DNA from: Candidatus Omnitrophota bacterium
GTDB taxonomy: Bacteria; Omnitrophota; Gorgyraeia; Zapsychrales; Fredricksoniimonadaceae
Length of the DNA: 64,000 bases
Assembly (NCBI GenBank): GCA_028870995.1
Contig: JAGWOI010000012.1
Coordinates: 1,501 to 65,500 of the forward strand
Direction: 5' to 3'
In this document: positions 22,447 to 40,319 of the stretch, one piece after another
Layout of the letters: every line of letters starts with the position of its first letter
Position numbering within the stretch: the stretch's first letter is position 1
Made by a program: the position numbers and the translations under genes
The notes under the pieces: model-generated
Database searches by the model: none
What the model was told of the DNA's origin: nothing
The model's input: only the letters and a program-made list of their open reading frames with translations

Positions 22447-23331
22447 ATGAACAGCAAACACATACTTGAAGAACCGGTAGCTTCAACGGTCATCAGCCAC
22501 CGTTTTAGCCATGCCGTGTGGGGCGCCATATTCGCAGGATCCTTTGTTATTGTCGTCAGTCAAATGGTACTGGCCTTTTTGGGGGCCAGCATCGGGTTAT
22601 CAACCCTCAACATCGTCCAAGGAAACAATATCAAAGCCTTGGGGGTGGGCGCCGCCATCTGGTGGATCATAAGCACCTGCATCGCCTGTTACGCCGGAGG
22701 AATGGTCGCGGGACGTTTATCAGGCATTCCCCGTCAACTGGACGGGATTTTGCACGCTCTTGTTGCCTTTTCGATGACCGTCCTATTTTCCTTCCTGTTT
22801 CTGTCATCCTCCCTGGGCGCCATTATTGCCGGCGGCATGGGCGTTTTCAAGGCGGGCATGCAGTCAGCGGCCGCGGTGGCCCCGCAGATAGCCGGCGGTG
22901 TCAGCAGCATGTTGCCGCAGGGAATGGTCAATAGCAGCGACGAAGCCACACGTAATGAAATAAACCAGGTTTTTTCACAGTTACAGAACCCTGCCCAGCG
23001 TCAAGAGCTCGCCGATGCGCTGGCTGCCATGGCCTCTACCAATAATGTCCAGGCCCAAAAGCAACAGGCTGTGAATATTTTAACCCAAAACGGCATCATG
23101 AGTCAGCCGCTGGCAACAGACACCGTCAATCGTTGGAGCCAAAACATCCAAAATATAAAACAGGATCTCCAGGGGGTGGCGCAAACGGCTGCCCAGTCTG
23201 CCCAAGGAGCATCAAGGGCAGCGGCAGGATTGGCCTTTGCTTCATTTATTATGCTGGTTTTAGGCGGTATCTTTGCAGGCTGGGGAGGTTCCGCAGGAGC
23301 TCCTCATTGGGCTGATCAGGAGATCGCATAA
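22447..23331 (+). CDS. hypothetical Gln-rich integral membrane protein (4 N-terminal TM helices, Q-rich helical middle, C-terminal TM helix)
   Basis: 294 aa. The RBS aaaggagag precedes the ATG at 22447. It is the only plus-strand CDS between rpmB and the oxidoreductase near the 3' end, and it is followed by a strong terminator. Confidence 0.55.
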   Translation: MNSKHILEEPVASTVISHRFSHAVWGAIFAGSFVIVVSQMVLAFLGASIGLSTLNIVQGNNIKALGVGAAIWWIISTCIACYAGGMVAGRLSGIPRQLDGILHALVAFSMTVLFSFLFLSSSLGAIIAGGMGVFKAGMQSAAAVAPQIAGGVSSMLPQGMVNSSDEATRNEINQVFSQLQNPAQRQELADALAAMASTNNVQAQKQQAVNILTQNGIMSQPLATDTVNRWSQNIQNIKQDLQGVAQTAAQSAQGASRAAAGLAFASFIMLVLGGIFAGWGGSAGAPHWADQEIA

Positions 23332-23400: not shown

Positions 23401-24066
23401 TTATTTTCTTAAAGGGATACCGATATCGATCACCTTCACACAGCCGGTGACAAACCGCCCCTCGTTTTTAAAAAATCCCTTTTTAGGGCAGCTAAAGGTC
23501 ACCGTCAGGTCTGCCTTAACGCAAATGCCGAATACTTTGCCAGCCGTTCCGTCCAAACCCGAAGGGATATCAACCGCAATCACATAGGATTTCGCGGCAT
23601 TAAGGGCTTCTATAATCCCGTAATAAGGTTCCCGGAGGGGACGATTTAACCCCACGCCGAACAAGGCATCGAGAATCACATCAGCCGACCGGATGGACTT
23701 TTGAAAAAGAGCCTCGGGGCCATGCATAGGCCTGACACCGATCTTTAGCCTCTTGAGGATATTGTAATTAGCCAAGGCATCCGGCTTGAGTTGAGCAACA
23801 CTTCCAGCCAGATAAACCTGTGGATTGAAGCCCATATTGGAGATGAACCTGGCCGCGACAAGCCCGTCGCCGCCGTTGTTACCCGTCCCACAGACAATGA
23901 CGATCCGGGATTTATTCCGCCGCTTTAAATAGGCAGCCGCTTCCATGGCAACACCCCGCCCCGCATTCTCCATGAGGCTTAAGGAGGGAATGCCGATACG
24001 GGTGATAGCCCAGCGGTCCAGCATCTGGGATTGTCGGACGGTTAATGCACCGCTAAAAGATCTCAT
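23401..24066 (-). CDS. nnrE: NAD(P)H-hydrate epimerase (YjeF N-terminal domain only)
   Basis: 221 aa. IVIVCGTGNNGGDGLVAARFI...DALFGVGLNRPL is YjeF-N typical. There is no fused C-terminal dehydratase domain. Confidence 0.75.
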   Translation of the reverse strand: MRSFSGALTVRQSQMLDRWAITRIGIPSLSLMENAGRGVAMEAAAYLKRRNKSRIVIVCGTGNNGGDGLVAARFISNMGFNPQVYLAGSVAQLKPDALANYNILKRLKIGVRPMHGPEALFQKSIRSADVILDALFGVGLNRPLREPYYGIIEALNAAKSYVIAVDIPSGLDGTAGKVFGICVKADLTVTFSCPKKGFFKNEGRFVTGCVKVIDIGIPLRK

Positions 24067-25072
24067 ATTGGCTGCTTTGACGGAACATCATCTCCACCAA
24101 TTCCAAAACCTCTTCCACCTTAATGGCCCCTGGTTGAAACGTGTTGTTCAATATGAAACTTTTGGGTCCCAAAGGCCGCCAGCGTTTGACGTTGACACCG
24201 GGGTTATCGCGCATAAACAAAGAAACCACACTGGTGCCGACTCCCGCAGCCACATGCACCGGCCCTGAATCATTGGAGATCAATAAACGCGCCCGCTTCA
24301 ATAAACTGGCCATTTGGGCCACGGAAGTATGGCCCGTCAAATTGACATATTGGGATGCCTTGGGACTCACCCGCAGGATTTCGGCGGCTATCGGTGCTGT
24401 GACAGGAGCCCCGATCAACACGATCTTTAAAGGATAGCGCTCGCTTAATGCATCCATCAATCGGGCAAAATGGACTGCCGGCCAACATTTGGCCGGATCG
24501 GAAGCGCCGGGATGAACGGCAATAAAATCATTGGATTTCAAATTGTTTTCCAGCATCCAGTTCCTTGCCCAATTTTCCGCCTCCGGCTGCAAAGGCACCA
24601 GCATGTCCAAATCATCATTTTCAACACCGATGGCTTTTAAAACGTCCTTACAATATTGGGCCTCATGTTTTTCTCCTAAAGCCCTGCCGTCCTTTATAGG
24701 ATGCGTCAGCAGAAAACCATATTTGTTATTTTTATAGCCCAGCCGGTAAGGGATACACGCCAAAGCGCAGGCCAGGTTGTATCGGCGTTTGGTATGATAA
24801 ATAACGGCCAGATCGAACCGCCTTGCCCTAAGCTCCCCGGCCAATCTGACGAACCCCCCTATTCCCCGGTGCTTGCCCTGACGATCATCGACAAGGATCT
24901 CATCCAGGTAGGGATTGCCGTTGACCAGATCCCGCGTGGCTGAAGCCACAAGGATGGAAATGCGTGATCCCGGATAGGCCTGGCGCAGCGCCTTAATGGA
25001 AGGCGTTGTCAACACGACGTCCCCGATACGGTCGGTGCGGATGATCAAGATATTACGGAATTGGTTTTTCAT
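24053..25072 (-). CDS. GT9 glycosyltransferase (LPS heptosyltransferase family, WaaC/WaaF/WaaQ-like)
   Basis: 339 aa. ILIIRTDRIGDVVLTTPSIKALRQAYPGSRISILV...ISNDSGPVHVAAGVGTSVVSLF are GT9 hallmarks. Confidence 0.8.
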   Translation of the reverse strand: MKNQFRNILIIRTDRIGDVVLTTPSIKALRQAYPGSRISILVASATRDLVNGNPYLDEILVDDRQGKHRGIGGFVRLAGELRARRFDLAVIYHTKRRYNLACALACIPYRLGYKNNKYGFLLTHPIKDGRALGEKHEAQYCKDVLKAIGVENDDLDMLVPLQPEAENWARNWMLENNLKSNDFIAVHPGASDPAKCWPAVHFARLMDALSERYPLKIVLIGAPVTAPIAAEILRVSPKASQYVNLTGHTSVAQMASLLKRARLLISNDSGPVHVAAGVGTSVVSLFMRDNPGVNVKRWRPLGPKSFILNNTFQPGAIKVEEVLELVEMMFRQSSQYEIF

Positions 25073-26039
25073 CTTTTAATGCTTCGATGGCTTTAATCAC
25101 ATCTTCAGGTTTAATAAAGGACATGCATTGATGCGGCGCTTTCATCTTTGGGTCGCGGCAACGCTCGCAGAGCTCATTGCGTTTGACCACCACCGACCGA
25201 TCAGACCAGGGGGCATACTTTTCCAAAGGCGTGGGGCCCCAAAGAACAACCAGAGGCACATTCAAATAGGAAGCCAGGTGCATGACACCGCTGTCATGCG
25301 TCAAGGCCAAGGCCGCCTTTTTAAGAACATAGGCCAATTGACGCAGACTGCTTTTGCCGGCCAGGGACAGCGAAGGGCTTTTCATCCGGTTTTGGATGGA
25401 CGTAATGACCGCCCTGTCCTTGGCATCACCGACAAAAATAACCTTGGTGGATCGGGAGAGATGATCTGCCACCGCCACAAACCCGTCGGGCGTCCAGCGT
25501 TTCTCGCTCGAAGCGGCGCCGGGAGCTACCACCACAAACGGTTGGGTGCGGACAAAAGGAGCCACCTCTTCATCGAAAAAGCGCTCATCCTGCGTCACTG
25601 TCACCACGGCATATTGCCTGGCGGCAGGAACTTCGAAAGGATACAGCCGCCGTAGATGGTTTAAATGCCCGTCCTTCTTATGACCATGATAAACATGAAA
25701 GGCGGCCACCGGTGTCGCATATTTAGGCATTAAGAAAACAGGCAGCATGGTTCGGCGCAGATCAATCACACAGTCATAATGTTGACGGCGGACCTCTAAG
25801 AACCAGGCCTGTTTTTCCTGCAGCGAAGAACGCTTGTCAAAAATCTTGACCTTAAAATGAGGATTGTCTTCAAAAAGTGAGACGGCCTTTGGTCCTATCA
25901 TCACGTCCATCCGCGCTTCGGGAAAATTTTCGCACAAGACGTCGATCACCGGGCAGGTCAGGACCACATCCCCGATATTCGTGAGGCTGAAGACCAGGAT
26001 ATGTTTAGGATCGCAATTTTTCGAAAGCTTGGGCCACAT
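25053..26039 (-). CDS. GT9 glycosyltransferase (heptosyltransferase family), second paralog
   Basis: 328 aa. ILVFSLTNIGDVVLTCPVIDVL...THDSGVMHLASYLNVPLVVLWGPT. Confidence 0.8.
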   Translation of the reverse strand: MWPKLSKNCDPKHILVFSLTNIGDVVLTCPVIDVLCENFPEARMDVMIGPKAVSLFEDNPHFKVKIFDKRSSLQEKQAWFLEVRRQHYDCVIDLRRTMLPVFLMPKYATPVAAFHVYHGHKKDGHLNHLRRLYPFEVPAARQYAVVTVTQDERFFDEEVAPFVRTQPFVVVAPGAASSEKRWTPDGFVAVADHLSRSTKVIFVGDAKDRAVITSIQNRMKSPSLSLAGKSSLRQLAYVLKKAALALTHDSGVMHLASYLNVPLVVLWGPTPLEKYAPWSDRSVVVKRNELCERCRDPKMKAPHQCMSFIKPEDVIKAIEALKDEKPIP

Positions 26040-27012
26040 CGCTCACCGTCACCGATTTCATGCAAACATTGCTGCCGCATGCCAAATGATAACAAGGCGC
26101 CTTGTTGCAACCGATTTCATTAAAAAGGATGATGGAACGCCCCCCGCCCCGCGGACCGGTGATCTCCGGGCGCGTCGATCCATAAATACCGATAATATTG
26201 CCCCCCACACTGTGGGCCAAATGCAAAGGACCGGAATCGGCGGAAATGACGCCCAAAGCCTGTTTATAAAGAGCCAGGGATTCGCCTAAAGCGGTTTCAC
26301 CGGCCATCACAACCCCTTTGACACCGGAGATCTTCATGATGTGTCGGCAAAGTTCCCTGTCGTGGTGGCCTCCTGAAAAAACGACCGGCAGATCAAACTG
26401 TTCGTTAAGACGTTTAGCCAGTTGGGCAAAAGCATCCGGCCCCCAGCGTTTAAGGTCCCAATTGCCGCCGGGGTTTAAAACGACATAATCTTTCATGGGT
26501 TTCAAACCTGCGTTGGCAAGTTTGGTTCTTAAGCTTTGAATGTCCTCCGCCTTCAAACGCAGTTCGCAGGTGCGGTCCTGGACCTTGATCCCAAAACCTT
26601 CCACCGCTTTCAAATAATAATCACAGCGGTGCATATCTTCCGCAGCCATGGCCACGGGATGCGTCAAAAGACCGGGCGTCTTGCTATAACCGATGCGCAA
26701 AGGCACTCCTGCCAAATACACCATGAGAGACCTCGTCAGGGAGCGGTGCAGTAAAAAGGCGGCATCGAATTTTTTCTTCCTTAATGAGGCGATCAATCCT
26801 AATTTCCGCCAAGGGTAACGGTGCCTGCCCCGTTCATCATAAACGATGATCTTGTCCACATAAGGGCAATACTGAAGGACTTCCTTGACCCGAGGCGCGC
26901 ACAAACAGGTCAGGCGCGCCTGCGGATAGGTTTTTTTGAGTGTTTTAAAGACCGGGATGGAAAATACAGCATCCCCCAGCCAGTTGATATTAACGACGAG
27001 AATATTGTTCAT
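26005..27012 (-). CDS. GT9 glycosyltransferase (heptosyltransferase family), third paralog
   Basis: 335 aa. ILVVNINWLGDAVFSIPVFKTLKKTYPQARLT...ISADSGPLHLAHSVGGNIIGIYGST. Confidence 0.8.
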   Translation of the reverse strand: MNNILVVNINWLGDAVFSIPVFKTLKKTYPQARLTCLCAPRVKEVLQYCPYVDKIIVYDERGRHRYPWRKLGLIASLRKKKFDAAFLLHRSLTRSLMVYLAGVPLRIGYSKTPGLLTHPVAMAAEDMHRCDYYLKAVEGFGIKVQDRTCELRLKAEDIQSLRTKLANAGLKPMKDYVVLNPGGNWDLKRWGPDAFAQLAKRLNEQFDLPVVFSGGHHDRELCRHIMKISGVKGVVMAGETALGESLALYKQALGVISADSGPLHLAHSVGGNIIGIYGSTRPEITGPRGGGRSIILFNEIGCNKAPCYHLACGSNVCMKSVTVSDVAQAFEKLRS

Positions 27013-28090
27013 ACACCTGTAGGGTCTTCTGGACCATGATATCGGCTGAAAAGTGTTCTTGGATATTCAAACGTGCCCTTTCAGCCATTGCCATCCCCTG
27101 TCCGGGATTTTTAAGCAAGGTGATGAGGCGGTCCGCCAGGACCGATTCATCGCGGCTTGGGACCAGAAAGCCGCTTTGGCCGTCTTCAATAAGATCAACC
27201 AATCCCCCTACAGCCGAGGCCACCACCGGGACGCCGCAGGCCTGAGCCTCCATGACCGACAACCCCAATCCCTCCATCAGGGAAGGCATGGCAAAAACAT
27301 CGAAAGCCGGCAGAATACGGTTGGTTTGATTGATCGTGTTCCTAAAAAAAACCTCCCCTGACAAGGACAAGTCAACAGCCAGTTTTTTTAAGTGCGCCTC
27401 TTCGGGGCCCTGCCCCACGATCATCAATCGGGCGCCGGGCATCTCTTTAAGAACACGGGGCATGGCCCTGATCAAAACATCGATGCCTTTGACATCTGAA
27501 AGCCTGGCGATAATCCCAATTAACGGTGTGTTCCCCGCAATCTTCCATTCTTGACGCACAAGGCGGCGCTGGACGTCATCGGCAGGCGCAAAACGTTTCA
27601 AATCGACACCGTTAACGATCCAGTGAATCCTATCCTGCGGCACATGAAAGTCCTCGCTCAAATGCCGGACAACGGGTTTGCTGATGGCAATGACGCCTTT
27701 GCCCCAGCAGGGAAAGGCCTTGCGAAACCAGCGCGGCCTAAAAAAACCGTGGCAGGTGGTGACCATAGGTATCCCCGTCAAACGGCTTAAGGCATGGCCC
27801 AGCACCTGGGTGACTCTCGTCTGGGAATGGATGATATTGATCTCGTTTTTCCAGGTCAAATCTTTTAATGCCCCCAAACTTAACCATAATTTCGGATGGA
27901 CTTCTGATTTGGTACGGATATTCAGCCGGACATGGCGCATCCCCAAAGCCTCCATCCGGGGAACAGCATCTCCGCCGCTGGAAACCACCCAGACATGATG
28001 CCCGGATGACACCAATCCCTCACCTAACGTCAAGATATAGCTTGTAATGCCCCCGGTATTGGCATGTGTAGTCAGGAAAAGGATGTTCAT
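26990..28090 (-). CDS. GT4 glycosyltransferase (GT-B fold, WaaG-like)
   Basis: Start taken at MNILFLTTHANTGGITSY (ATG at 28090, overlapping the upstream stop as ATGA). EGLGLSVMEAQACGVPVVASAVGG is the GT4 E-x7-E region. Confidence 0.8.
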   Translation of the reverse strand: MNILFLTTHANTGGITSYILTLGEGLVSSGHHVWVVSSGGDAVPRMEALGMRHVRLNIRTKSEVHPKLWLSLGALKDLTWKNEINIIHSQTRVTQVLGHALSRLTGIPMVTTCHGFFRPRWFRKAFPCWGKGVIAISKPVVRHLSEDFHVPQDRIHWIVNGVDLKRFAPADDVQRRLVRQEWKIAGNTPLIGIIARLSDVKGIDVLIRAMPRVLKEMPGARLMIVGQGPEEAHLKKLAVDLSLSGEVFFRNTINQTNRILPAFDVFAMPSLMEGLGLSVMEAQACGVPVVASAVGGLVDLIEDGQSGFLVPSRDESVLADRLITLLKNPGQGMAMAERARLNIQEHFSADIMVQKTLQVYEQYSRR

Positions 28091-30174
28091 TTGATTAAGT
28101 GCATCACTTTTTTTGCAACTTCTTCGGGCGAAATGTCCTTCATGCACGCATGCGTCCTGATCCTGCAAACGCCGGAGTAACATGGCGAACATTTCAAGGG
28201 TTTATGGAGCACCACGCTCTTTTCGGCGGGCGGCATATGACGGCGGTAATCCGTGGGGCCGAAAAAGGCAATCACAGGGATGTTCATTCCGGCCGCCACG
28301 TGCAAAGGCGCCGAATCGGGCGATATATAGACCTGACAGCGTTTGATGAGGGCGGCCAGCTGCAGGATGGTCGTCTTGCCGATAAAGCTGGCCGGCTTGG
28401 CCCGGGCCCGGGCGATCAATTGCCTGCCTAAAGGTTTGTCCTTTTCCTCGCCTGTCAAAACCACCCGGATGTTTTTCTGGCCCAACAGATCACACAATTT
28501 GACCATATGTTCGACGGGCCAATTTTTTGTGGGCCAGGCCGCGGATGCAGAGACGTTTAAACCCACAAAGACCTGAACACTGTTGAGCCACTCGCTGTCC
28601 AAAAGCTCCTGCACGTAAGCATCATCCTTGGGGGAAGGCCGCAGCTCCAGCCTTAGATCAGGGCTATAATCAATGCCAAGCATTTTTAAAATCCTGAACT
28701 GATGTTCCACCGGCGACAGGTTGCGGTGGGTATTCTTGATCTTTCTCGATAAGAGAAAACCAAATTTGCCGTTATTGTAACCATAAGATTCCTTGGGGCA
28801 GCTTAAAAAAGACAACAAATGACTGGCACGGTTGTTCTGCAGGTCCACGACCTTGTCAAAATGATAACCGCGCAATTCCATGGACTTGTGCCAAACGGCT
28901 CTAAAATCGTTCGACCTTGCGTCAAAGATCAGGGTCTCATCAACGGCACGCGAATTTTCCACCACAGGACCCGCCGGCGCCGAGGTCAGGCAGCAGATCC
29001 TGGCAGTCGGAAATTTGCGGCGGATGGCGTTAAAGGCGGCGGTGGACAAAACAACATCACCCACCGCCGTCATCTTAATGATCAAAATCTTGGTCGAAAG
29101 CATCAACTCTTCATAAACGGCGATTGTGGAGCGGGCCATCCGGCTTAAGGTGTACCGGCTTTCTATTTTCTTCTTGGCTTCCAAGACCAGGGCTGCAGCA
29201 AAATCCGGGTTGCTCAAGATGCGCACAACGGCATTGGCCATGGCCTCGTCGTCTTTAGGCAACACCAAAAGACCTGTTTTTTCGTGATCGATGATTTCCG
29301 TCACTCCGCCCACGCGTGTGGCCACCACAGGTACACCGGCAGCCTGGGCCTCGATGACCACACGGCCAAAAGCCTCCTGGGTCACCGTCGAGAGCACCAG
29401 ACAATCCGCCTTGCTCAATAATTGAGGAATATCCCGGCGGTTACCCATAAACTCAACCTGTGCCGAAATACCTAAGCGTTTGGTCAAAAGCAGCAATTCA
29501 TCCTTGTAGGCCTGTTTTTTAGCCGGAGCGTCTCCGATGATCTGCACCTTGACCGACGGCATCCGCCGGATCACGCGGGACATGGCTTTTAAAAAGTATG
29601 GGTGGCCTTTTAAAGGCGTGATACGTCCGATCATGACCACGTTATACGTCTTTTTATGGGATGGCAAGGGCCTGGCCGCATTGAACTTCTCCAAGTCCAC
29701 GCTGCGCGGGATGACCCTGATATTCTCTGCCGGCGTCTTAAAATCCTGGACCATGTGCCTGCCGACAACTTCACTGATGGCAATGACAAGCTTGCCCCAC
29801 CCCATCACCCGGCTGAAGAAGTGGGACGAATAATAACCATGACAGGTGGTGATAAAGTGGGCCTCAGTCCTGCGGCAGGCAAAAAAAGCGATCCAAGCCG
29901 GCACGCGGGAGCGGGCATGGACAATATCGATCTTTTCCTTTTTGATGATGGCCACGAGCTTGGACATGCAGCGCCAGGCGATGATGGGATTTTTGGCATG
30001 TACGGGCAGGGTATAATGCTTGGTGCCTTCAGATTGCAGCTGGGCCACCAGGGCACCGCCGTTGGAAACGACAACCGATTTATGGCCCTGGGCCACCAGG
30101 CAGCGGCTCAGATCCACAGTGCCGGTCTCGACCCCGCCGACATTAAGCTCAGGAAGGATTTGCAGGATATTCAT
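28087..30174 (-). CDS. bifunctional fusion: N-terminal GT4 glycosyltransferase plus C-terminal GT9 heptosyltransferase-like domain
   Basis: 695 aa. Residues 1-365 are GT4 (MNILQILPELNVGGVETG...QEAFGRVVIEAQAAGVPVVATRVGG). Residues 370-695 are GT9 (ILIIKMTAVGDVVLSTAAFNAIRRKFPTARICCLT...SPDSAPLHVAAGMNIPVIAFFGPT). Confidence 0.75.
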   Translation of the reverse strand: MNILQILPELNVGGVETGTVDLSRCLVAQGHKSVVVSNGGALVAQLQSEGTKHYTLPVHAKNPIIAWRCMSKLVAIIKKEKIDIVHARSRVPAWIAFFACRRTEAHFITTCHGYYSSHFFSRVMGWGKLVIAISEVVGRHMVQDFKTPAENIRVIPRSVDLEKFNAARPLPSHKKTYNVVMIGRITPLKGHPYFLKAMSRVIRRMPSVKVQIIGDAPAKKQAYKDELLLLTKRLGISAQVEFMGNRRDIPQLLSKADCLVLSTVTQEAFGRVVIEAQAAGVPVVATRVGGVTEIIDHEKTGLLVLPKDDEAMANAVVRILSNPDFAAALVLEAKKKIESRYTLSRMARSTIAVYEELMLSTKILIIKMTAVGDVVLSTAAFNAIRRKFPTARICCLTSAPAGPVVENSRAVDETLIFDARSNDFRAVWHKSMELRGYHFDKVVDLQNNRASHLLSFLSCPKESYGYNNGKFGFLLSRKIKNTHRNLSPVEHQFRILKMLGIDYSPDLRLELRPSPKDDAYVQELLDSEWLNSVQVFVGLNVSASAAWPTKNWPVEHMVKLCDLLGQKNIRVVLTGEEKDKPLGRQLIARARAKPASFIGKTTILQLAALIKRCQVYISPDSAPLHVAAGMNIPVIAFFGPTDYRRHMPPAEKSVVLHKPLKCSPCYSGVCRIRTHACMKDISPEEVAKKVMHLIK

Positions 30175-32141
30175 CAGGCTATTCGCTCCAAGCCTTTTTG
30201 GATGACGGTCTGGTCATCGACGGACTTTAAACTTATTTTACAGCTGAGCAGCTGGGTGATCTTCGCCTTGATATCTTCTACGGAACTTACCATTAAGTAC
30301 CCCTGATCATTTAATTTCAATACAAAATCCTCATATTTGTCCCTGGGCTTGTCCCGGTAGCGCCCATTGGGGGAAAACACCAGGGTGCGGCGCACCGAGC
30401 ATAGCGCCTCGGAGATCATGGAAATACTTTCACCGGAAACGATGATGAGGTCTGATAAGGACAAAATACCGCCAACGGCTTCCGGCACGTTGCGCTGATT
30501 GGCAATGATGCACAATGGACAACGTTCGAAACCTTTAAGCTCGCGGGCAATGAGCCCCTCGACCTCCGGAGGCGTTCGTCTGGATGTGGTCAACAGGATA
30601 TCAGCGTTGTAATGCAAGGCTGCTTTTTTAAGCTGGTCGATCAATTCGCGGATATGGTTTTCATCGAACTTGACCCCTTCGGCATCGCCGCCCAGCAGCA
30701 CACCGAATTTGGTGCGCACATTCCCCTTTAAATGGGAATAGCATCTCAGGAGCCCCTCCTCCTGCTCTTTTAAATAAGCAGCGCTGATCAAATTAGGAGA
30801 GACCTTCGGGATTATCAAACGGGCCCGTTTGAGATCCTTAGGGCCGTCATGCTCGGGCAAGACTACGATATCAAACCGTTCATGGGAAATAATGCCCGGC
30901 GATAAAACACAAATGGAACGGGCCAGGTGATTGCGGCTCAAGATAAAATTGGCGCCGGCAGCCTGGGAACCACAGGAGATCACATAGTCCGCCTTGTATT
31001 TCATGAGCTCCTTGTAGGAATCCTCCGTCAGAAAATATTTCAAGCACTCCTCTTTTTTCAAAAAACTGAAATATTGGGACAAAAAAACATACAGAGTGAG
31101 CATCGAGGGGCTAAGCTTGTTCTGCCATTGCAATGAGACAACCGCCTCTTGGGAGGACTTGCCATTTTTCTTTAAAACCTCGCTTAAATTTCTGGATAAG
31201 GCCTGGGATTGCCTTAGATGCCCTGTCCTGCCGTCATCCACGATCAACACTTGCGCTTGATTGGAATACTTAAAAACCTTGTAAAACCACAAGTATTCAT
31301 CCGGATGTTCTTTAAGCAGCTCTTCGAACTGCGCCACGCCTTTGCCTATATTGGCCCTGACGTCTTTTTCCATGTCTCCGGTTTGCGTTAATTCAAGAGG
31401 CGGAAAAACCTTCAGCAGGTGTTTGCCGTCCGGGCGCCTTTCTATCCACGCCGGGCACAGGGCGCAGCCGTACTTCAACGCCAGGCGCAGGGCGCCGGTG
31501 GACATGGAAGCGGTCTTGCCCATAAAAGGAACAACCAGTCCTGTTTTGCCTCCCTGGTCAAGGACAAGGGAGACGACCTCGTTGTTCTGGAGGGCCTTGA
31601 TGATCTCCTTGCCTCCACCGCCGGTGGTGATCACGCGAGCGCCGGCGATGGTACGGTATTCATTAAGCATCTTGTCGAGTTGGGGGAATCTGGGCTGTTC
31701 ATTGACCACAACGTGGTAGGAACCCTGGGTGACCCCGCCGATGATGCTGGCCAGTTCCCAGCTTCCGGAATGAATGGCCAAAAAGATAACACCCTTGCCT
31801 CGGGCCAACGCCTCATCAATGTTCTTCTGGCCTTCCAGGTCGACAAACCGGTCAAGGCCCAAACTCTTGATCTTAGGCAGGCATAAGAGCTCAACGACAC
31901 TTTGGATAAAATTGATAAAAACTCTTTTGCCTAAAAGGCGCAATTGGGCCGGCTCAAGCTTGCCGGCGAACACGGTCTTCAGGTTGGCGTAAACCACCTT
32001 TCTTTTCTTGGACAAACAGGTATAACCGATACGGCCCAGGAGGCGCCCCAGCCAAAGGCTCGTCCTCATAGGCAACAGCATAAAAAGAAAAGCTGCCGTC
32101 TTAACGCAGGCAAATAGAACTGATTTTTTCAAAAAATTCAT
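30174..32141 (-). CDS. fusion: N-terminal LpxL/HtrB-family lipid A late acyltransferase plus C-terminal ELM1/GtrOC1-like (Mito_fiss_Elm1, PF06258-type) domain
   Basis: The N-terminus has a TM helix and FLAIHSGSWELASIIGG (the HxxxWE acyltransferase motif). The C-terminal ~330 aa contain ISCGSQAAGANFI...GVLLGGDAEG...ILLTTSRRTPPEV, typical of ELM1-like predicted glycosyltransferases. The start is uncertain (32141 or 32177). Confidence 0.6.
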   Translation of the reverse strand: MNFLKKSVLFACVKTAAFLFMLLPMRTSLWLGRLLGRIGYTCLSKKRKVVYANLKTVFAGKLEPAQLRLLGKRVFINFIQSVVELLCLPKIKSLGLDRFVDLEGQKNIDEALARGKGVIFLAIHSGSWELASIIGGVTQGSYHVVVNEQPRFPQLDKMLNEYRTIAGARVITTGGGGKEIIKALQNNEVVSLVLDQGGKTGLVVPFMGKTASMSTGALRLALKYGCALCPAWIERRPDGKHLLKVFPPLELTQTGDMEKDVRANIGKGVAQFEELLKEHPDEYLWFYKVFKYSNQAQVLIVDDGRTGHLRQSQALSRNLSEVLKKNGKSSQEAVVSLQWQNKLSPSMLTLYVFLSQYFSFLKKEECLKYFLTEDSYKELMKYKADYVISCGSQAAGANFILSRNHLARSICVLSPGIISHERFDIVVLPEHDGPKDLKRARLIIPKVSPNLISAAYLKEQEEGLLRCYSHLKGNVRTKFGVLLGGDAEGVKFDENHIRELIDQLKKAALHYNADILLTTSRRTPPEVEGLIARELKGFERCPLCIIANQRNVPEAVGGILSLSDLIIVSGESISMISEALCSVRRTLVFSPNGRYRDKPRDKYEDFVLKLNDQGYLMVSSVEDIKAKITQLLSCKISLKSVDDQTVIQKGLERIA

Positions 32142-33144
32142 CGGCTCCTTTGGTGATTTCCAGCTGTACCGGCACATAGACCAGGCGCAGGCCCGTAAAC
32201 AAACTCTTGAATGAACGTAATTTCACCGTATCCTTATGGGTGGTGACCAAAACTTCGATCTGCTGCGAACGGCAATACGCCGTCATGTGCCGTATATCAC
32301 CGGCGTTATAGGCATGATGGTCCATGTAGGTAAAGAATTTAACGGCCTGGACCGACGAATTCTTCAAGGTCAATTCGAAAGAAAGCGGATCGCCGATGGC
32401 ACAAAACCCCACCACCCGCTTCTGGTTCAGGAAATCCGGGGGCATGATCGTCCCGTCAAAAGCATCAATGGTGGCCCCGCTCTTATAAATACTTTCCATG
32501 ATCAAGGCTTTCGGGTTTAACTTCTGAAGCCGCGATGTCAAAGCAGTTATATTTTTAGAAGCGCTGGTCTTGGTCAATATAAAAACATCCGCGCGTCTCA
32601 AGGCTGATAAAGGTTCCCGCAGGACGCCTGCCGGCAGCAAATAGCCGTTGCCGAAAGGATTGACGGCATCGATGGTCACGATGTTCAGATCACGGTGCAG
32701 GGGCCAGTGCTGGAAGGCATCATCGCAGATGTAGACATCTGCCGGGAGCGTCGATTCAGCCTCGCGGATATTGGCAGAGCGGTCCCCCCCTGCCAGCACC
32801 GGAATATAGGGGATCTGTTCATTAAGCATGTCCACTTCGTCGCTAATTTTCGAAATTTGGGGTTTATAACCGCGGATAAGCACGATCGATTTGAATCCCT
32901 TGTTTTGTAAATTTTTAGCAAGCCAAATAACCAAGGGAGTCTTCCCTGTCCCTCCCACCGTAATGTTGCCGATGCTGATCACGGGTTTGGGGGCCTTGTA
33001 TATGCCCTTCAGACGGCAAAGGTTGCGATGGCAAACAACACCCCATTCATACACCATAGAGAAAGGCACCAGCAAATACATGATCAATTGGCCTATAAAG
33101 CTGGTGTTTTGCCCCTTCATGATGGAAAGCAAATAGGCCTTCAT
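32101..33144 (-). CDS. lpxK: tetraacyldisaccharide 4'-kinase
   Basis: 347 aa. P-loop PVISIGNITVGGTGKTPLVIWLA and overall LpxK layout. Confidence 0.85.
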   Translation of the reverse strand: MKAYLLSIMKGQNTSFIGQLIMYLLVPFSMVYEWGVVCHRNLCRLKGIYKAPKPVISIGNITVGGTGKTPLVIWLAKNLQNKGFKSIVLIRGYKPQISKISDEVDMLNEQIPYIPVLAGGDRSANIREAESTLPADVYICDDAFQHWPLHRDLNIVTIDAVNPFGNGYLLPAGVLREPLSALRRADVFILTKTSASKNITALTSRLQKLNPKALIMESIYKSGATIDAFDGTIMPPDFLNQKRVVGFCAIGDPLSFELTLKNSSVQAVKFFTYMDHHAYNAGDIRHMTAYCRSQQIEVLVTTHKDTVKLRSFKSLFTGLRLVYVPVQLEITKGADEFFEKISSICLR

Positions 33145-34445: not shown

Positions 34446-35306
34446 TTAAGCGCGCGGGTGGGCCTTATCGTAAATTCTTTTGAGCTTGTCCGTGGTCAGG
34501 TGGGTGTAGATCTGTGTCGTGGAAAGGTTCACATGCCCTAAAAGCTCCTGCACACTGCGCAGGTCGGCCCCATGGTCCAAGAGATGGGTGGCAAAGGAAT
34601 GGCGGAACATGTGCGGCGTGACATGCTGGGCCGCGGCCTGTTCGAGGATGTATTTATTGATGATATTGCGCACACTGCGGTCAGTCAAGGGGGTGCCGTT
34701 CTTGTTGAGAAAAACAGCCTGGGCTTTGACCTTGCGTTTGTCCAAATAGTCCTTTAGAGCATACAACGCCTTATCGCCGATGGGCACGATGCGCTCCTTC
34801 TTGCCCTTGCCCATGACCTTGATGACGTTGCTGATAAAATCCACGTCGTCCGTCTTGAGGCCCACCAGCTCACTCACCCGGATGCCTGTTGAATAAAGCA
34901 CCTCGAAAATGGCCCTGTCCCGGAAAGAACTAATTTTGTCGCTGCGGGGCGCCTCGAGGATCTTAACGGTCTCCTCCTCCGTCATAAAATGCGGCAGGGG
35001 CTTGTCGAGCTTTGGGGTCACTAAAAGCTTGGCCGGGTTGGAAGACAGCACGCCTTCCCGTTGAAGAAATTTAAAAAATGAACGCAGGGCCGAAAGCTTG
35101 CGGCTGACGCTGCGCGGCTTTAAATTCCGCGCCTTAAGCAGGGCTAAAAACCGCCGCAGGTCGGGATACCCCGCCTTCTTGACAGGGGTATTGCCCAAAA
35201 ATGCGGCGAATTCCTGAAGATCGATCCGGTAATTAAGCGTGGTATGGCTGGAATAATTCTTTTCGACTTCTAGGTAGGTGAAAAATTTATCCAGATATTC
35301 GATCAT
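34446..35306 (-). CDS. xerC: tyrosine recombinase XerC/XerD
   Basis: 286 aa. N-terminal SAM-like domain; C-terminal catalytic residues (R..HxxR..Y in HMFRHSFATHLL...LGHVNLSTTQIYTH). The smf-topA-xerC gene order supports the call. Confidence 0.8.
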   Translation of the reverse strand: MIEYLDKFFTYLEVEKNYSSHTTLNYRIDLQEFAAFLGNTPVKKAGYPDLRRFLALLKARNLKPRSVSRKLSALRSFFKFLQREGVLSSNPAKLLVTPKLDKPLPHFMTEEETVKILEAPRSDKISSFRDRAIFEVLYSTGIRVSELVGLKTDDVDFISNVIKVMGKGKKERIVPIGDKALYALKDYLDKRKVKAQAVFLNKNGTPLTDRSVRNIINKYILEQAAAQHVTPHMFRHSFATHLLDHGADLRSVQELLGHVNLSTTQIYTHLTTDKLKRIYDKAHPRA

Positions 35307-37264
35307 GGATTGGCAGCCGGAAGCTTATTGGCAATGAACTTGCATTCTGGGTAACGGCTGCACCCGTAGAAAACCGCACCGCGGTGCGAACGGCGTTCGA
35401 CCAATTCCCCGGTACAGCCGGGCGAAGGGCATTTGACTCCGGTGGTAAAAGGTTCCGCATGTTTGCAGGCAGGGAAACCCGTACAACTGATAAAACGGCC
35501 ACGGCGTCCCCACTTGACCGCCAGGGGCTTGCCGCATTCAGGGCAATTTTTATCAATGAAGGTTTGTGTCTTTTGGATATTGGCTTGGGCAAAATCGAGG
35601 TCTTCCTTAAAAGGACCCCAAAAGTCACCCAGGACCTTGGCATACGCGTTGACCCCTTCTTCAATGGAATCCAGTTCCTCTTCCATCGTCGCGGTAAAAC
35701 CGATATCCATGATCTTCTTAAAATATTCCATGAGCAAATGACAGATCTTGATCCCCAATTCCGTGGCAGTGAAGTAACCGCGCTCGCGCACCACATAATT
35801 ACGGTAAACCAGGGTCTGGATGATGGAAGCATAGGTGGATGGCCGGCCGATCCCCTGTTCTTCCAGGGCCTTGACCAGGCTCGCTTCCGAATACCTCGCC
35901 GGAGGTTTGGTGAAATGCTGGGTCGGTTTAACCTCCAGCAAGTCAAGCGCATCTCCTTCGGCATACAGGGAAGGATCCAATTTAATGTCCTGGTCCTCAT
36001 TGTCCCTGTACATGGTCAAATAACCGGGAAACGCCAGGATCGACCCCGAAGCCCCAAATTGAAACCGCCCGGCTGCGATCTCGATCTTGGTCTGCTCGAA
36101 AACAGCAGGCATCATCTGGCAGCTGATAAATCTCTTCCAGATAAGGTCATATAAGCGGTATTGATCATCGGTCAGGTACTGTTTAAGGCTCTCCGGTTTT
36201 CGGGAAATCACGCTGGGACGGATGGCCTCATGGGCTTCCTGGGCACTTTTCTTGGATTTGAATTTATTGGGCTGCTCAGGCAGGTATGGGGCGCCGTGGT
36301 CCTTTTTGATCAACTCCCTGACCTTCTCAATGGCCTCGGCCGCGATATTGACGGAATCCGTACGCATATAGGTAATAAGCCCTTCAGGCTCTTCTTCGCC
36401 GATGGCGATACCTTCGTACAACTCCTGGGCAATGGACATGGTTTTTGAGGTATTGAAACCTAATTTGCTGAAAGCCTCCTGCTGCAGGGTGCTGGTGATG
36501 AACGGGGCCGGCGCATTGCGCTTGACCTGTTTGGTGTTGATGGCGGAGATCTTAAAGGGGGACTTTCTGATCTCATCGACAATGCTTTCAGTCTGCGGCT
36601 GGTTCTTGAGGTCTATTTTCTCCCCATCGATCTTTTCCAAATTAGCCGTCAAGATGTCTTTAACGCCCTTCTTTTGCAGGTCAACGGCGATCTGCCAATA
36701 TTCCTGGGGCACAAAACTTTTGATAGCCTCTTCACGCTCCACTATGAGGCGCAGGGCAACGGACTGCACGCGCCCGGCGCTCAAGCGGGAGCCGACCTTC
36801 TCCCACAACAAGGGGCTGATCTGATAACCCACCATGCGGTCTAAAACACGGCGGGCGTTCTGGGCGTCGACTAGCTTCCGGTTAAATTCGCGGGGGTGCT
36901 CAAAAGCCTTCTTGACCGCCTCACGGGTGATCTCATGGAAAACCACCCTCTGGACCTTCTTGCCCTTGGCGATGTGTTCGATCAGGTTCCAGCCGATGGC
37001 TTCCCCTTCACGGTCAGGGTCGGTGGCGATATAAATTTCCTCGACCTCTTTGGCTTCCTTTTTTAATTTGGCCATGGTCTTTTGCTTGTCACGCACAACG
37101 ATAAACCTGGCCTCAAAATCCTTGTCCACGTCCACGCCAAGCGTGGACTTGGGCAGATCGATCAAGTGCCCCATGGAAGCGGTGACCTTGTATTTGGATC
37201 CTAAAATTTTATTGATCGTCTTGACCTTAGCCGGCGATTCGACGATGACTAATGCTTTTGACAT
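35303..37264 (-). CDS. topA: DNA topoisomerase I
   Basis: 653 aa. TOPRIM region (LVIVESPAKVKTI...ATDPDREGEAIGW), the catalytic Tyr region, and C-terminal zinc ribbons (CPECGKP...CTGFPAC). Confidence 0.9.
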   Translation of the reverse strand: MSKALVIVESPAKVKTINKILGSKYKVTASMGHLIDLPKSTLGVDVDKDFEARFIVVRDKQKTMAKLKKEAKEVEEIYIATDPDREGEAIGWNLIEHIAKGKKVQRVVFHEITREAVKKAFEHPREFNRKLVDAQNARRVLDRMVGYQISPLLWEKVGSRLSAGRVQSVALRLIVEREEAIKSFVPQEYWQIAVDLQKKGVKDILTANLEKIDGEKIDLKNQPQTESIVDEIRKSPFKISAINTKQVKRNAPAPFITSTLQQEAFSKLGFNTSKTMSIAQELYEGIAIGEEEPEGLITYMRTDSVNIAAEAIEKVRELIKKDHGAPYLPEQPNKFKSKKSAQEAHEAIRPSVISRKPESLKQYLTDDQYRLYDLIWKRFISCQMMPAVFEQTKIEIAAGRFQFGASGSILAFPGYLTMYRDNEDQDIKLDPSLYAEGDALDLLEVKPTQHFTKPPARYSEASLVKALEEQGIGRPSTYASIIQTLVYRNYVVRERGYFTATELGIKICHLLMEYFKKIMDIGFTATMEEELDSIEEGVNAYAKVLGDFWGPFKEDLDFAQANIQKTQTFIDKNCPECGKPLAVKWGRRGRFISCTGFPACKHAEPFTTGVKCPSPGCTGELVERRSHRGAVFYGCSRYPECKFIANKLPAANP

Positions 37265-37267
37265 GAT

Positions 37268-38353
37268 CTATTTCCTAACGTAATATTGACCGGGCAGCTG
37301 CCTGATCAGATGCTTTAATTCAAGACTTAAAGCAATATTGATAAGACGGCTGATATCAAATCCTGTTTCCTGGACCAGCTCATCTAAATGCACCGGCGCA
37401 GAGCCGATGCAGGGATAAACTCTGGATTGCTCATCACTGAGCAGGACAACCTTCTGGTCCTGCCCCCCGGAGAATGGCCTGTGCTCTCCCATAATGCGCG
37501 CCAGCACATCATCGGGAGTCAGCGCCATACAGGCTCCGTCGCGGATCAACTGGTTGCTGCCCAGGCCATGCTCATTATCGATATTCGACGGCAAAACAAA
37601 CACATCCTTGTGTTGCGCCTGCGCATAATCGGCGGTGATCAACGCTCCGCTTCTAAGCCCCGCTTCGATGACTACCGTGGCACGGGACAGGCCGCTGATG
37701 ATGCGGTTACGCCACGGGAAATTATGCTTCAACGGCGGCATCGAAAAAGCAAACTCTGAAACAACGCACCCCTGGGAACTGATCCTTTCCATAAGAGGAA
37801 TGTTTTCCTTAGGGTACATATGGTTAAATCCGCAGCCGATGACAGCCACGGTGGTACCGTCCGCCTCCAAGGCACCCTGATGGGAGGCGGTATCAATGCC
37901 GCGCGCCAGGCCGGAGACAACCGTCAGGCCGGCTTCGACAAAGGTCCGGGCAAAAAATTTAGCCGATCGGCAGCCGTAAAAACTGGCCGCCCTCGAACCA
38001 ACCAGGGCCACGGACGGCTGGTGCAAGACCTCCATGCGCCCTTTAAGATAGAGCACCACCGGCGCATCATCAAAACCATTCAAAGAACCGGGAAAGTTCT
38101 CTTCAACTGCCGTAAGAGCAACAATTCCTTTGCGTTGCATCAGATTATATTCGTCTTGCAGGAATTTGTCTTTAGAAAAATTTAATATGTTTGTAACAAG
38201 CTCTAATGAAAGCAATTTAGATAAGGCCAATTGCTCCCGGCCGGCCCCTAAAACCGCCTGAGCGCCGCCAAAGAGCGCCATCAGTTTGCGGATGCGCACA
38301 GCGCCCAGGTCAGGCACGGCGTTCAAGACCAGCAAAGCCTCCCGCTCTGTCAT
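37268..38353 (-). CDS. dprA: DNA processing protein DprA (Smf)
   Basis: 361 aa. VALVGSRAASFYG...VSGLARGIDTASHQGAL...VIEAGLRSGALITA. Confidence 0.85.
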   Translation of the reverse strand: MTEREALLVLNAVPDLGAVRIRKLMALFGGAQAVLGAGREQLALSKLLSLELVTNILNFSKDKFLQDEYNLMQRKGIVALTAVEENFPGSLNGFDDAPVVLYLKGRMEVLHQPSVALVGSRAASFYGCRSAKFFARTFVEAGLTVVSGLARGIDTASHQGALEADGTTVAVIGCGFNHMYPKENIPLMERISSQGCVVSEFAFSMPPLKHNFPWRNRIISGLSRATVVIEAGLRSGALITADYAQAQHKDVFVLPSNIDNEHGLGSNQLIRDGACMALTPDDVLARIMGEHRPFSGGQDQKVVLLSDEQSRVYPCIGSAPVHLDELVQETGFDISRLINIALSLELKHLIRQLPGQYYVRK

Positions 38354-39917: not shown

Positions 39918-40319
39918 TCATTCCCCTCCGGTGCTGTCTGCCGTTGAATTATCCTGCTCTTGCTGGGTCTGTGAAACCCCCTGACTGGTCACCTTCAATT
40001 CCTTGGCATTCACGCCGCCAAGAGCACAAAACAACTCAACCTTGATCACATCGCCCACCTTGGCAGGCAAGGCCACATCGTCACTGAACTTATCATAGGC
40101 GTCCTGACGGAAAAAATTAGAGGTCGAAATCAACTTGCCGTTGACGTAAACATTCATCAGGCGTATATACATCTTTTGCAGGTTAAAGGACTGGTGATGC
40201 GCCTCCACATGCAAATTTTTATGCCCCATGTCGTAAGACAAGCTGATATCCGTGGGGGCATGGGCCCAAGCGATGGAAGCAGGCAAAAAACATATACACA
40301 ACAAGACAAATTTCTTCAT
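39918..40319 (-). CDS. small secreted hypothetical protein (133 aa)
   Basis: MKKFVLLCICFLPASIAWAHAPTDISLSYDMGHKNLHVEAHH... The ATG at 40319 overlaps the prepilin peptidase stop as ATGA. The upstream Arg/Gly-rich extension in the ORF track is rejected. Confidence 0.45.
   Translation of the reverse strand: MKKFVLLCICFLPASIAWAHAPTDISLSYDMGHKNLHVEAHHQSFNLQKMYIRLMNVYVNGKLISTSNFFRQDAYDKFSDDVALPAKVGDVIKVELFCALGGVNAKELKVTSQGVSQTQQEQDNSTADSTGGE

Follow-up and report, generated by a model that had tools for sequence, protein, structure and literature searches.

Can two steps of lipopolysaccharide (LPS) inner-core assembly be carried by one polypeptide, and if so, what does its second half do? The question is raised by a 64,000-nucleotide stretch of a Candidatus Omnitrophota bacterium (assembly GCA_028870995.1, contig JAGWOI010000012.1, positions 1,501 to 65,500; "the window" below is this whole stretch), in which a single gene joins an LpxL/LpxM-type late acyltransferase domain to a domain of the ELM1/GtrOC1 family (PF06258), the family of KdoT from Acinetobacter baumannii. 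The fusion is confirmed as real and phylum-wide in Omnitrophota. Its product is very probably a bifunctional acyltransferase and glycosyltransferase of the 3-deoxy-D-manno-oct-2-ulosonic acid (Kdo)-lipid A stage. More specifically, we consider it probable, with some reserve, that this is a membrane-anchored inner-core enzyme, both domains of which act on Kdo2-lipid IVA, the C-terminal one adding a further Kdo or a Kdo-like acidic sugar. The features of the gene, in window coordinates, are as follows.

30174..32141, reverse strand: coding sequence of the LpxL::ELM1/KdoT-like fusion, 655 amino acids plus stop (maximal open reading frame to 32177)
32067..32123, reverse strand: predicted single membrane anchor, an N-terminal hydrophobic helix at residues 7-25 (Kyte-Doolittle hydropathy, AlphaFold2)
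31269..32096, reverse strand: LpxL/LpxM-type late acyltransferase domain, PF03279, residues 16-291 (Pfam E 3.8e-39)
31755..31772, reverse strand: HSGSWE, the H-x4-E dyad H124/E129, residues 124-129 (aligned to HFGTWE of LpxM)
31248..31271, reverse strand: domain junction KYS-NQA-QV, residues 291-298, with a linker of about 3-5 residues, that is, essentially none
30177..31259, reverse strand: ELM1/GtrOC1/KdoT-like GT-B domain, residues 295-655 (PF06258 at residues 307-616, Pfam E 5.7e-37)
31218..31238, reverse strand: DDGRTGH, N-terminal GT-B motif (equivalent to SDGKAGH, D8 to H13, of KdoT)
30570..30596, reverse strand: LLTTSRRTP with the SRRT donor-site motif, S520 R521 R522 T523 (aligned to ILTTSRRTP of KdoT)
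30402..30437, reverse strand: SGESISMISEAL, second family motif, in the C-terminal Rossmann half (aligned with TEDSVSMVFEAL of KdoT)

The initial annotation, made from the DNA letters alone, described one uninterrupted two-domain reading frame at 30174-32177, and the frame is indeed open throughout its 667 codons on the reverse strand. The start given there is probably not the one in use. An ATG at 32141 lies 6 nucleotides after the ribosome-binding site AAGGAG and gives a product of 655 residues; this start is probably to be preferred to 32177 because of the AAGGAG spacing, the length of the homologues (about 655 residues, aligned at 100% coverage) and the invariance of L23 and P24, which lie upstream of the start chosen by NCBI. 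The NCBI protein (P0001, [quoted passage not shown]) has 631 residues and starts at Met25 (window position 32069). Considering that L23 and P24 are invariant in an alignment of 54 fusion homologues, on which all invariance statements below are based, and that residues 6-26 are the only strongly hydrophobic stretch, the NCBI start would delete the membrane anchor. The public gene model of the fusion is thus probably too short.

Can the single reading frame be an artefact, in which an assembly error or a frameshift has merged two separate genes? One related lineage (locus L084, described below) does have lpxL and ELM1 as separate neighbouring genes, and some 90% clusters of the protein database mix half-length and full-length members. 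A search of 5.8 billion proteins gave 403 matches with E<=1e-10. The best 120 are, almost without exception, about 655 residues long and contain both domains, at 42-100% identity, and the named ones belong to Candidatus Omnitrophota. In a survey of GTDB that took a single genome for each species, at least 527 stretches encoded a relative, and the best 80 loci were examined. These match residues 1-654 at 31-71% identity, and in 80 of 80, all independent species-level genomes, both halves are in one frame without an internal stop. More than 100 full-length cluster representatives have about 655 residues. The composition has no break at the junction (...WFYKVFKYS-NQA-QVLIVDDGRTGH), which the full-length AlphaFold2 model (mean predicted local distance difference test score, pLDDT, 90.2; predicted template modelling score, pTM, 0.85) places with confidence. 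An artefact is therefore hardly conceivable, being already refuted by the conservation of the frame. The model confidence and the near-linkerless junction suggest a fixed arrangement of the two predicted domains. Apparent in-frame stops in two of the loci (L052, L067) are a natural stop and a codon preceding the start.

Nearly all of the 80 loci are labelled Omnitrophota; some third-party assemblies bear the names "uncultured Planctomycetales" or "bacterium". The order topA-xerC/D-waaA-lpxK-fusion-GT4::GT9-GT4-GT9-GT9-GT9 (GT, glycosyltransferase family) is kept in nearly all loci that extend far enough. The statement that the ELM1-type domain is usually a standalone protein holds for Acinetobacter and fails for Omnitrophota, where the fusion is the norm.

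What is the N-terminal half? Its PF03279 match scores 135.1 bits against a cut-off of 22.3 and covers profile positions 22-294 of 295. The hydropathy maximum (1.93) falls at about residues 6-26, no other 19-residue stretch is strongly hydrophobic, and AlphaFold2 places a helix at residues 2-22. By sequence, this half matches LpxM of A. baumannii (PDB 5KN7) with E 8.6e-13, and HSGSWE stands in register with HFGTWE of that enzyme, for which an E127A variant has been deposited as a catalytic-residue substitution. The transmembrane anchor and the H-x4-E motif claimed at the outset are thus borne out by hydropathy and by the alignment. H124, G126, W128 and E129 do not vary. Of the 80 genomes, 77 have HxGxWE, and the other three are assumed to be the loci cut by a contig end (L021, L068, L069). 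The best NCBIfam and PDB sequence matches are lipid A lauroyl acyltransferases; Foldseek with the full-length model finds PatA and LpxM (E about 1e-14, TM-score about 0.66-0.82). A second LpxL or ELM1 copy was found neither in the window nor in the 80 loci, except for a partial second N-domain match in one of them (L077). The LpxL of E. coli acts on Kdo2-lipid IVA and is Kdo-dependent.

The C-terminal half is assigned as firmly to its family: PF06258 scores 127.9 bits against a cut-off of 27 and covers profile positions 2-275 of 304. Modelled alone, the domain reaches a pLDDT of 92.9, and Foldseek returns generic GT-B matches (MGD1, MurG, GT1 enzymes, UDP-GlcNAc 2-epimerases) with E 1e-9 to 1e-7 and TM-score about 0.5; a PDB sequence search gave no match for this half. 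The domain search and structure prediction proposed as checks thus place both families far above their curated cut-offs and give an LpxM/PatA fold for the N-terminal half and a GT-B fold for the C-terminal one, which sustains the ELM1-type GT-B assignment made initially. The C-terminal strings quoted there are also found in the protein, LLTTSRRTP being residues 516-524.

The relation to KdoT itself is distant and extends over almost the entire length of KdoT. BLASTP aligns the two at 24% identity over 294 columns (E 7e-12), and hhalign, with a profile of 19 Omnitrophota C domains, gives 99.0% and E 3e-18. The blocks DG(K/R)xGH, PEHDG, the LGG loop, (I/L)LTTSRRTP and SxSMxxEAL are common to both; in the SRRT block (LLTTSRRTP against ILTTSRRTP) nine of ten residues are identical. 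Invariant positions are D303, G307 and H308, the S-R-R triplet, and S569, S572, S574, M575, S577 and E578. SRR(T/S) is present in all 80 genomes and (E/D)SxSMxSEA in 77; given that HxGxWE is retained as well, both active sites are under purifying selection. The source of the KdoT sequence was a fragment of an A. baumannii chromosome that PLSDB lists as a plasmid. There kdoT, of 296 residues, is the first gene past ilvE and is followed by glycosyltransferase, deacetylase and GT2 genes; D8 and H13 of the recovered protein agree with the published numbering.

Two side observations belong here. Five PLSDB "plasmids" of A. baumannii (CP040041.1, CP035931.1, NZ_CP064203.1, NZ_CP077849.1, NZ_CP104448.1; 0.56-4.1 Mb) carry the ilvE-OC (outer-core) locus, lpxL-lpsB and purM; they are evidently chromosomes or chromosome fragments and are a trap for plasmid statistics. 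Four standalone ELM1 relatives (P0150, P0158, P0257, P0268) have a Cys-rich stretch (e.g., CQGCLRCLK, CDGCDRC, CNGCNRC) in an insertion of the N-terminal Rossmann half, where a metal might be bound; the fusion protein of the window lacks cysteines there.

The initial annotation regarded the ELM1-like family as uncharacterised and a lipid A role for it as a novelty. This is no longer so: the enzymology of KdoT and the link to lipid A have been published since 2024. A. baumannii requires the "ELM1-like" protein A1S_2903 to give its inner core a third Kdo (PMC10936431), and this protein (also GtrOC1) is KdoT, a transferase from cytidine monophosphate (CMP)-Kdo to Kdo2-lipid IVA proven in vitro (PMC10936431, PMC12856342; both from one laboratory, 2024-25). 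KdoT prefers Kdo2-lipid IVA to Kdo2-lipid A carrying six acyl chains, and lipid IVA is not a substrate; a Rickettsia homologue complements the A. baumannii kdoT mutant; R179/R180 of the conserved SRRT are functionally required, and mutagenesis identified no catalytic base; although the protein lacks a transmembrane helix, part of it is recovered with the membranes (PMC12856342). Its partner is the GT4 enzyme GnaT (LpsB), which adds N-acetylglucosaminuronic acid (GlcNAcA) to KdoIII and is co-dependent with KdoT in vivo (PMC12856342). GtrOC1 is the sole PF06258 gene common to every A. baumannii outer-core locus, and four more PF06258 proteins (GtrOC14, 19a, 19b, 22) are found in the variable outer-core regions (PMC10327509).

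Does the neighbourhood agree with such a role? The gene lies, as the initial annotation said, between the GT4-GT9 fusion gene and lpxK, the stop of which it overlaps; coordinates and Pfam confirm this. The neighbouring genes are as follows.

34446-38353, reverse strand: dprA, topA and xerC/D, directly upstream of waaA
33141..34421, reverse strand: waaA (Kdo transferase), upstream of lpxK (PF04413, E 3.5e-54; NF004388, E 7e-100)
32101..33144, reverse strand: lpxK (tetraacyldisaccharide 4'-kinase), upstream of the fusion (PF02606, E 1e-76; TIGR00682 above cut-off)
29095..30174, reverse strand: GT4 half of the downstream GT4::GT9 fusion, GnaT/LpsB-like (36% identity to LpsB)
28087..29094, reverse strand: GT9 (heptosyltransferase-family) half of the same fusion (PF01075, E 1e-30)
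26990-28192, reverse strand: second GT4 of the core-assembly operon
26005-27012, 25053-26039 and 24053-25072, reverse strand: three GT9 genes of the core-assembly operon

The overlap with lpxK is 41 nucleotides (77 for the maximal reading frame). On the other side, the fusion stop overlaps the GT4::GT9 gene (28087-30174, reverse strand, 695 residues) by 1 nucleotide (TGATG), and this gene is itself a conserved fusion. Two fused genes thus follow each other (LpxL::ELM1 and GT4::GT9), and four inner-core activities are therefore encoded. Over its full length, the GT4 half has 36% identity to A. baumannii LpsB/GnaT (E 3e-79), as against only 25% (E 5e-27) for the paralogous GT4 at 26990-28192. 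In A. baumannii, lpsB directly follows lpxL. The GT9 half barely passes TIGR02195 (heptosyltransferase II), with 136.1 against 134.6 bits. Beyond the GT4::GT9 fusion, the conserved core-assembly operon extends over 24053..28192 (reverse strand).

The operon holds four paralogous GT9 domains (24053-27012 and 28087-29094, reverse strand), which suggests a heptose-rich or otherwise unusual inner core. The linkage of the DNA-processing genes dprA-topA-xerC/D to the LPS operon is kept across the phylum; the topA product is a 653-residue type IA topoisomerase with Zn ribbons. Two reading frames, 22447-23331 (forward strand, 294 residues) and 39918-40655 (reverse strand, 245 residues), had no Pfam match at E<=1e-4.

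Relatives of the locus differ in the partner to which the ELM1 domain is joined. At L084 (6129-8068) a split pair is found, an lpxL of 291 residues and an ELM1 gene of 355 residues with a TTG start, overlapping by 4 nucleotides (TTGA); the synteny (dprA-topA-xerC-waaA-lpxK...GT4::GT9) is that of the fusion loci. The split pair is plausibly the precursor state of the fusion. In two further clusters the domain is fused to LpxK (PF02606 + PF06258; P0189, 701 residues, L086 3438-5543; P0162, 718 residues, L087 1784-3940); the same GT4::GT9 gene comes next, and no lpxL was found in either cluster. A standalone ELM1 gene also occurs between a GT9 gene and GT4::GT9. In all these core-cluster arrangements (fusions, split pair, GT9-flanked gene), ELM1 directly precedes the GnaT-like GT4::GT9 gene, which is contextual evidence for joint action of a KdoT/GnaT-like pair. 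The LpxK-ELM1 and split forms show that ELM1 is associated with the lipid A/Kdo stage generally, not with LpxL alone. A rough neighbour-joining tree of the ELM1 domains, which has no support values, places the split and standalone forms at the base, a hint that the split form is basal, and the LpxK fusions within the fused clade. The taxa of the split and LpxK-fused forms were inferred from synteny only.

Two other relatives stand apart. At L081 (4058-7074; Omnitrophota MAG, that is, metagenome-assembled genome, GCA_030698625.1) the gene of a standalone ELM1/GtrOC1 paralogue of 357 residues (P0268) shares nucleotides with the 3' end of a gene for an MsbA-like ABC transporter. Its cluster contains Wzy_C, GT2 and several methyltransferase genes, and the next gene encodes a methyltransferase, not GT4::GT9; this may be a second, separate role of the ELM1 family in Omnitrophota. 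P0130 (501 residues) has a He_PIG immunoglobulin-like domain, about 70 residues from the end of an LpxL domain, and a complete ELM1 domain; it is either a chimeric assembly or another rearrangement.

How could the enzyme work? LpxK makes lipid IVA, and WaaA then makes Kdo2-lipid IVA, the presumed common substrate of both domains. The N-terminal domain would carry out a secondary acylation of Kdo2-lipid IVA, dependent on acyl-ACP (acyl carrier protein), through His124/Glu129. With a CMP-activated sugar as donor, the C-terminal domain would add one more Kdo (or an acidic sugar resembling it) to the Kdo2 disaccharide of the same lipid, the invariant arginines of SRRT presumably holding the donor carboxylate. 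The single LpxL helix would tether the otherwise soluble glycosyltransferase to the cytoplasmic face of the inner membrane, and the product would pass to the GnaT/LpsB-like GT4 domain and then to the GT9 heptosyltransferase-type enzymes. The fusion may fix the order or the stoichiometry of the two reactions; it probably arose from an adjacent, translationally coupled lpxL-ELM1 pair through loss of the overlapping stop. The best-supported reading is the one proposed in the initial annotation, in which the fusion links late acylation with a second modification of Kdo2-lipid A. The analysis shows the identity of the domains with their motifs and folds, an intact LpxL active site and an intact KdoT-type donor site on one membrane-anchored polypeptide, the homologies to KdoT and GnaT, the synteny and conservation throughout the phylum, and the occurrence of split and differently fused forms. 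The substrates of the enzyme, the sugar, the order of the reactions and any channelling are what we infer, and the identity of the sugar is the weak link.

It is tempting to go further and to propose substrate channelling: the lipid would be bound once and altered at either end, acylation and addition of the extra sugar would be coupled, an obligatory Kdo3 or branched under-acylated lipid A-core would result in Omnitrophota from an ancient series of fused enzymes, and WaaA-independent Kdo transfer by PF06258 would be ancestral and phylum-spanning. We hold this to be unlikely. If true, Kdo transfer by PF06258 would be ancestral in diderm envelopes and not a peculiarity of Acinetobacter and Rickettsia.

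Several points weigh against the addition of a Kdo-like sugar to an acylated Kdo2-lipid. LpsB-like GT4 enzymes such as Rhizobium LpcC can glycosylate Kdo2-lipid IVA directly, and therefore the GnaT-like neighbour does not strictly require a third Kdo. Identity to KdoT is just 24%, with two insertions of about 19 and 16 residues. The existence of GtrOC14, 19a, 19b and 22 means that PF06258 is not confined to one sugar, and the donor cannot be read from membership in the family. SRRT is the sole functionally validated motif of the family, and CMP-Kdo specificity is only putative. The LpxK-ELM1 lineages without lpxL in the cluster imply that coupling to acylation is not obligatory. None of the NCBIfam models for LpxL, LpxM or LpxP reaches its cut-off (NF006270, 136 against 248 bits; TIGR02207, 75 against 298): the family of the N-terminal half is clear, and no specific LpxL/LpxM/LpxP subtype is supported. 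Finally, a search for literature on Omnitrophota LPS and the ELM1 family found only the Acinetobacter work.

Can these points be better explained otherwise? The C-terminal domain might belong to the KdoT family by descent only and transfer a non-Kdo sugar (a hexuronic acid, a hexose or an amino sugar) to Kdo, to the lipid A backbone or to a phosphate, much as the four variable GtrOC proteins presumably use other donors or acceptors. The low identity to KdoT with its insertions, the merely generic Foldseek matches and a plasmid-borne C domain of Methylophaga, described below, that is much nearer to KdoT (35%, E 8e-59) are in keeping with this. However, the SRR triplet, the proposed binder of the Kdo carboxylate, is invariant, the GnaT-like partner is directly downstream in all core-cluster arrangements seen, and both the place right after waaA/lpxK and the parallel LpxL-WaaA fusions described below point to chemistry of the Kdo stage; we regard a non-Kdo sugar as a possible but doubtful alternative. 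That the ELM1-like domain is a catalytically inert scaffold or adaptor, recruiting core glycosyltransferases to LpxL as plant ELM1 does for dynamin-related proteins, is most improbable. Plant ELM1 is, according to a statement cited in PMC10936431, an adaptor and not a known enzyme, and the mutagenesis of KdoT gave no catalytic base; yet KdoT is enzymatic in vitro, the GG loop, SRRT and ESxSMxSEA are invariant or nearly so across 31-100% identity, which is the pattern of an active site, and the GT-B cleft is modelled at high confidence.

The doubt may also concern the other half: the PF03279 domain might acylate another acceptor, for instance a core sugar hydroxyl in the manner of PatA, possibly on the very sugar added by the C-terminal domain. 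The Foldseek TM-score is 0.80 for PatA against 0.66 for LpxM, and besides the sub-threshold LpxL/LpxM equivalog models, NF005919, a phosphatidylinositol mannoside (PIM) acyltransferase model, scores this half with 83 bits. We presume this to be very improbable, considering the lauroyl acyltransferases among the best sequence matches, the place of the gene after lpxK and waaA, and the lack of another PF03279 gene in the cluster or the window, so that lipid A would otherwise be left there without an encoded late acyltransferase.

Are such fusions found elsewhere? The survey of LpxL/ELM1 linkage suggested by the initial annotation returned, apart from the LpxK-ELM1 fusions, two further kinds. The best plasmid-database match to the LpxL half is WP_226069883.1 (674 residues) of the Methylophaga pinxianii plasmid pWTT2411, with PF03279 at 11-296, PF06258 at 374-660 and a linker of about 75 residues. 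Its C domain is closer to KdoT, at the identity given above, than the Omnitrophota domain is (24%). No similarity between the Methylophaga and Omnitrophota C domains was detected by BLAST, and the Methylophaga fusion is therefore most likely independent. Downstream of it come a GT4 with 46% identity to LpsB and then a GT9 gene. The module (L088 7917-12969, NZ_CP095734.1) comprises the LpxL-KdoT fusion, the LpsB-like GT4, a second GT4, a GT9 and an O-antigen ligase; beside it lie genes for a phosphoethanolamine-lipid A transferase (EptA), a PAP2 phosphatase, a diacylglycerol (DAG) kinase and a two-component system. Relatives of the Methylophaga LpxL domain are very commonly fused to canonical WaaA (PF03279 + PF04413, about 730 residues; e.g., P0297 and P0315), in dozens of clusters from gammaproteobacterial MAGs, and occasionally to GT9, to EptA (885 residues) or to a second LpxL; the proteins of all these kinds are P0284-P0395, P0285, P0397 and P0279. 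No paper on LpxL/LpxK/WaaA fusions was found in the literature. The architecture of a late acyltransferase fused to a Kdo-stage glycosyltransferase is recurrent, not singular.

What does the observation add? Both domain families were already characterised, the link of PF06258 to lipid A was published in 2024-25, and the architecture is visible in automated annotation (JGI, [quoted passage not shown]). Three points are new with respect to the literature that could be searched: Omnitrophota have the fusion throughout the phylum and in conserved synteny, a GnaT-like GT4 is paired with it, and LpxL or LpxK has repeatedly become fused to Kdo-stage glycosyltransferases. The KdoT/GnaT pair entered the literature in late 2025, as a non-canonical inner-core route in Acinetobacter and Rickettsia, and the locus extends it to a deep-branching uncultured phylum, in which it is universally conserved within the lipid A operon. 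The recurrent LpxL-ELM1, LpxK-ELM1, LpxL-KdoT and LpxL-WaaA fusions are Rosetta-stone evidence that PF06258 acts on Kdo2-lipid IVA beside a late acyltransferase, and they support the published KdoT assignment independently of biochemistry. A membrane-anchored partner is one possible explanation of how KdoT-type enzymes are held at the membrane. The finding opens no new class of biology; its use is in annotation and in comparative support for the KdoT model, and hundreds of entries named "mitochondrial fission ELM1 family protein" merit re-annotation.

How does the fusion compare with known systems? Plant ELM1 (Arabidopsis ELONGATED MITOCHONDRIA1) is the namesake of PF06258, but it is a eukaryotic protein of the mitochondrial outer membrane that serves DRP3A as an adaptor during fission and is not known to be an enzyme, whereas the fusion is encoded in a chromosomal LPS operon of a bacterium and is not an adaptor of the plant type. 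The common Pfam name reflects fold and family only, and the "mitochondrial fission" label is misleading. With LpxL/LpxM (LpxL of E. coli; LpxM of A. baumannii, 5KN7/5KNK) the fusion shares PF03279, the N-terminal membrane helix, the H-x4-E motif in register and the fold; it differs in being about 23-26% identical, in falling below every NCBIfam cut-off and in bearing a C-terminal glycosyltransferase. The LpxL-WaaA fusions, known from database entries alone, likewise have an N-terminal LpxL and a C-terminal GT-B Kdo transferase, and so place acylation and Kdo transfer on one membrane-anchored polypeptide; however, their glycosyltransferase is the canonical GT30 WaaA and not a PF06258 protein. 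The LpxK-ELM1 fusions and the split pair share with it the ELM1 subfamily (their domains are 30-38% identical to the C domain), the operon and the downstream GT4::GT9 gene, but the partner is the 4'-kinase, or there is no fused partner.

The Methylophaga protein (annotated as "ELM1/GtrOC1 family putative glycosyltransferase") has the same order of an N-terminal LpxL and a C-terminal PF06258 domain, with an LpsB-like GT4 and a GT9 downstream; unlike the Omnitrophota fusion, it comes from a cultured gammaproteobacterium, is plasmid-borne, has a linker of about 75 residues against about 3-5, and carries a close relative of KdoT as its C domain. KdoT itself agrees with the C-terminal half in PF06258, the GT-B fold, the near-full-length homology, the common motifs and the GnaT/LpsB-like GT4 partner encoded next door; it acts at the Kdo2-lipid IVA stage, where the fusion probably acts too. 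It differs in being a standalone peripheral protein of 296 residues encoded in the outer-core locus, whereas the domain described here has 360 residues, is fused to LpxL and hence membrane-anchored, and belongs to the lpxK/waaA operon.

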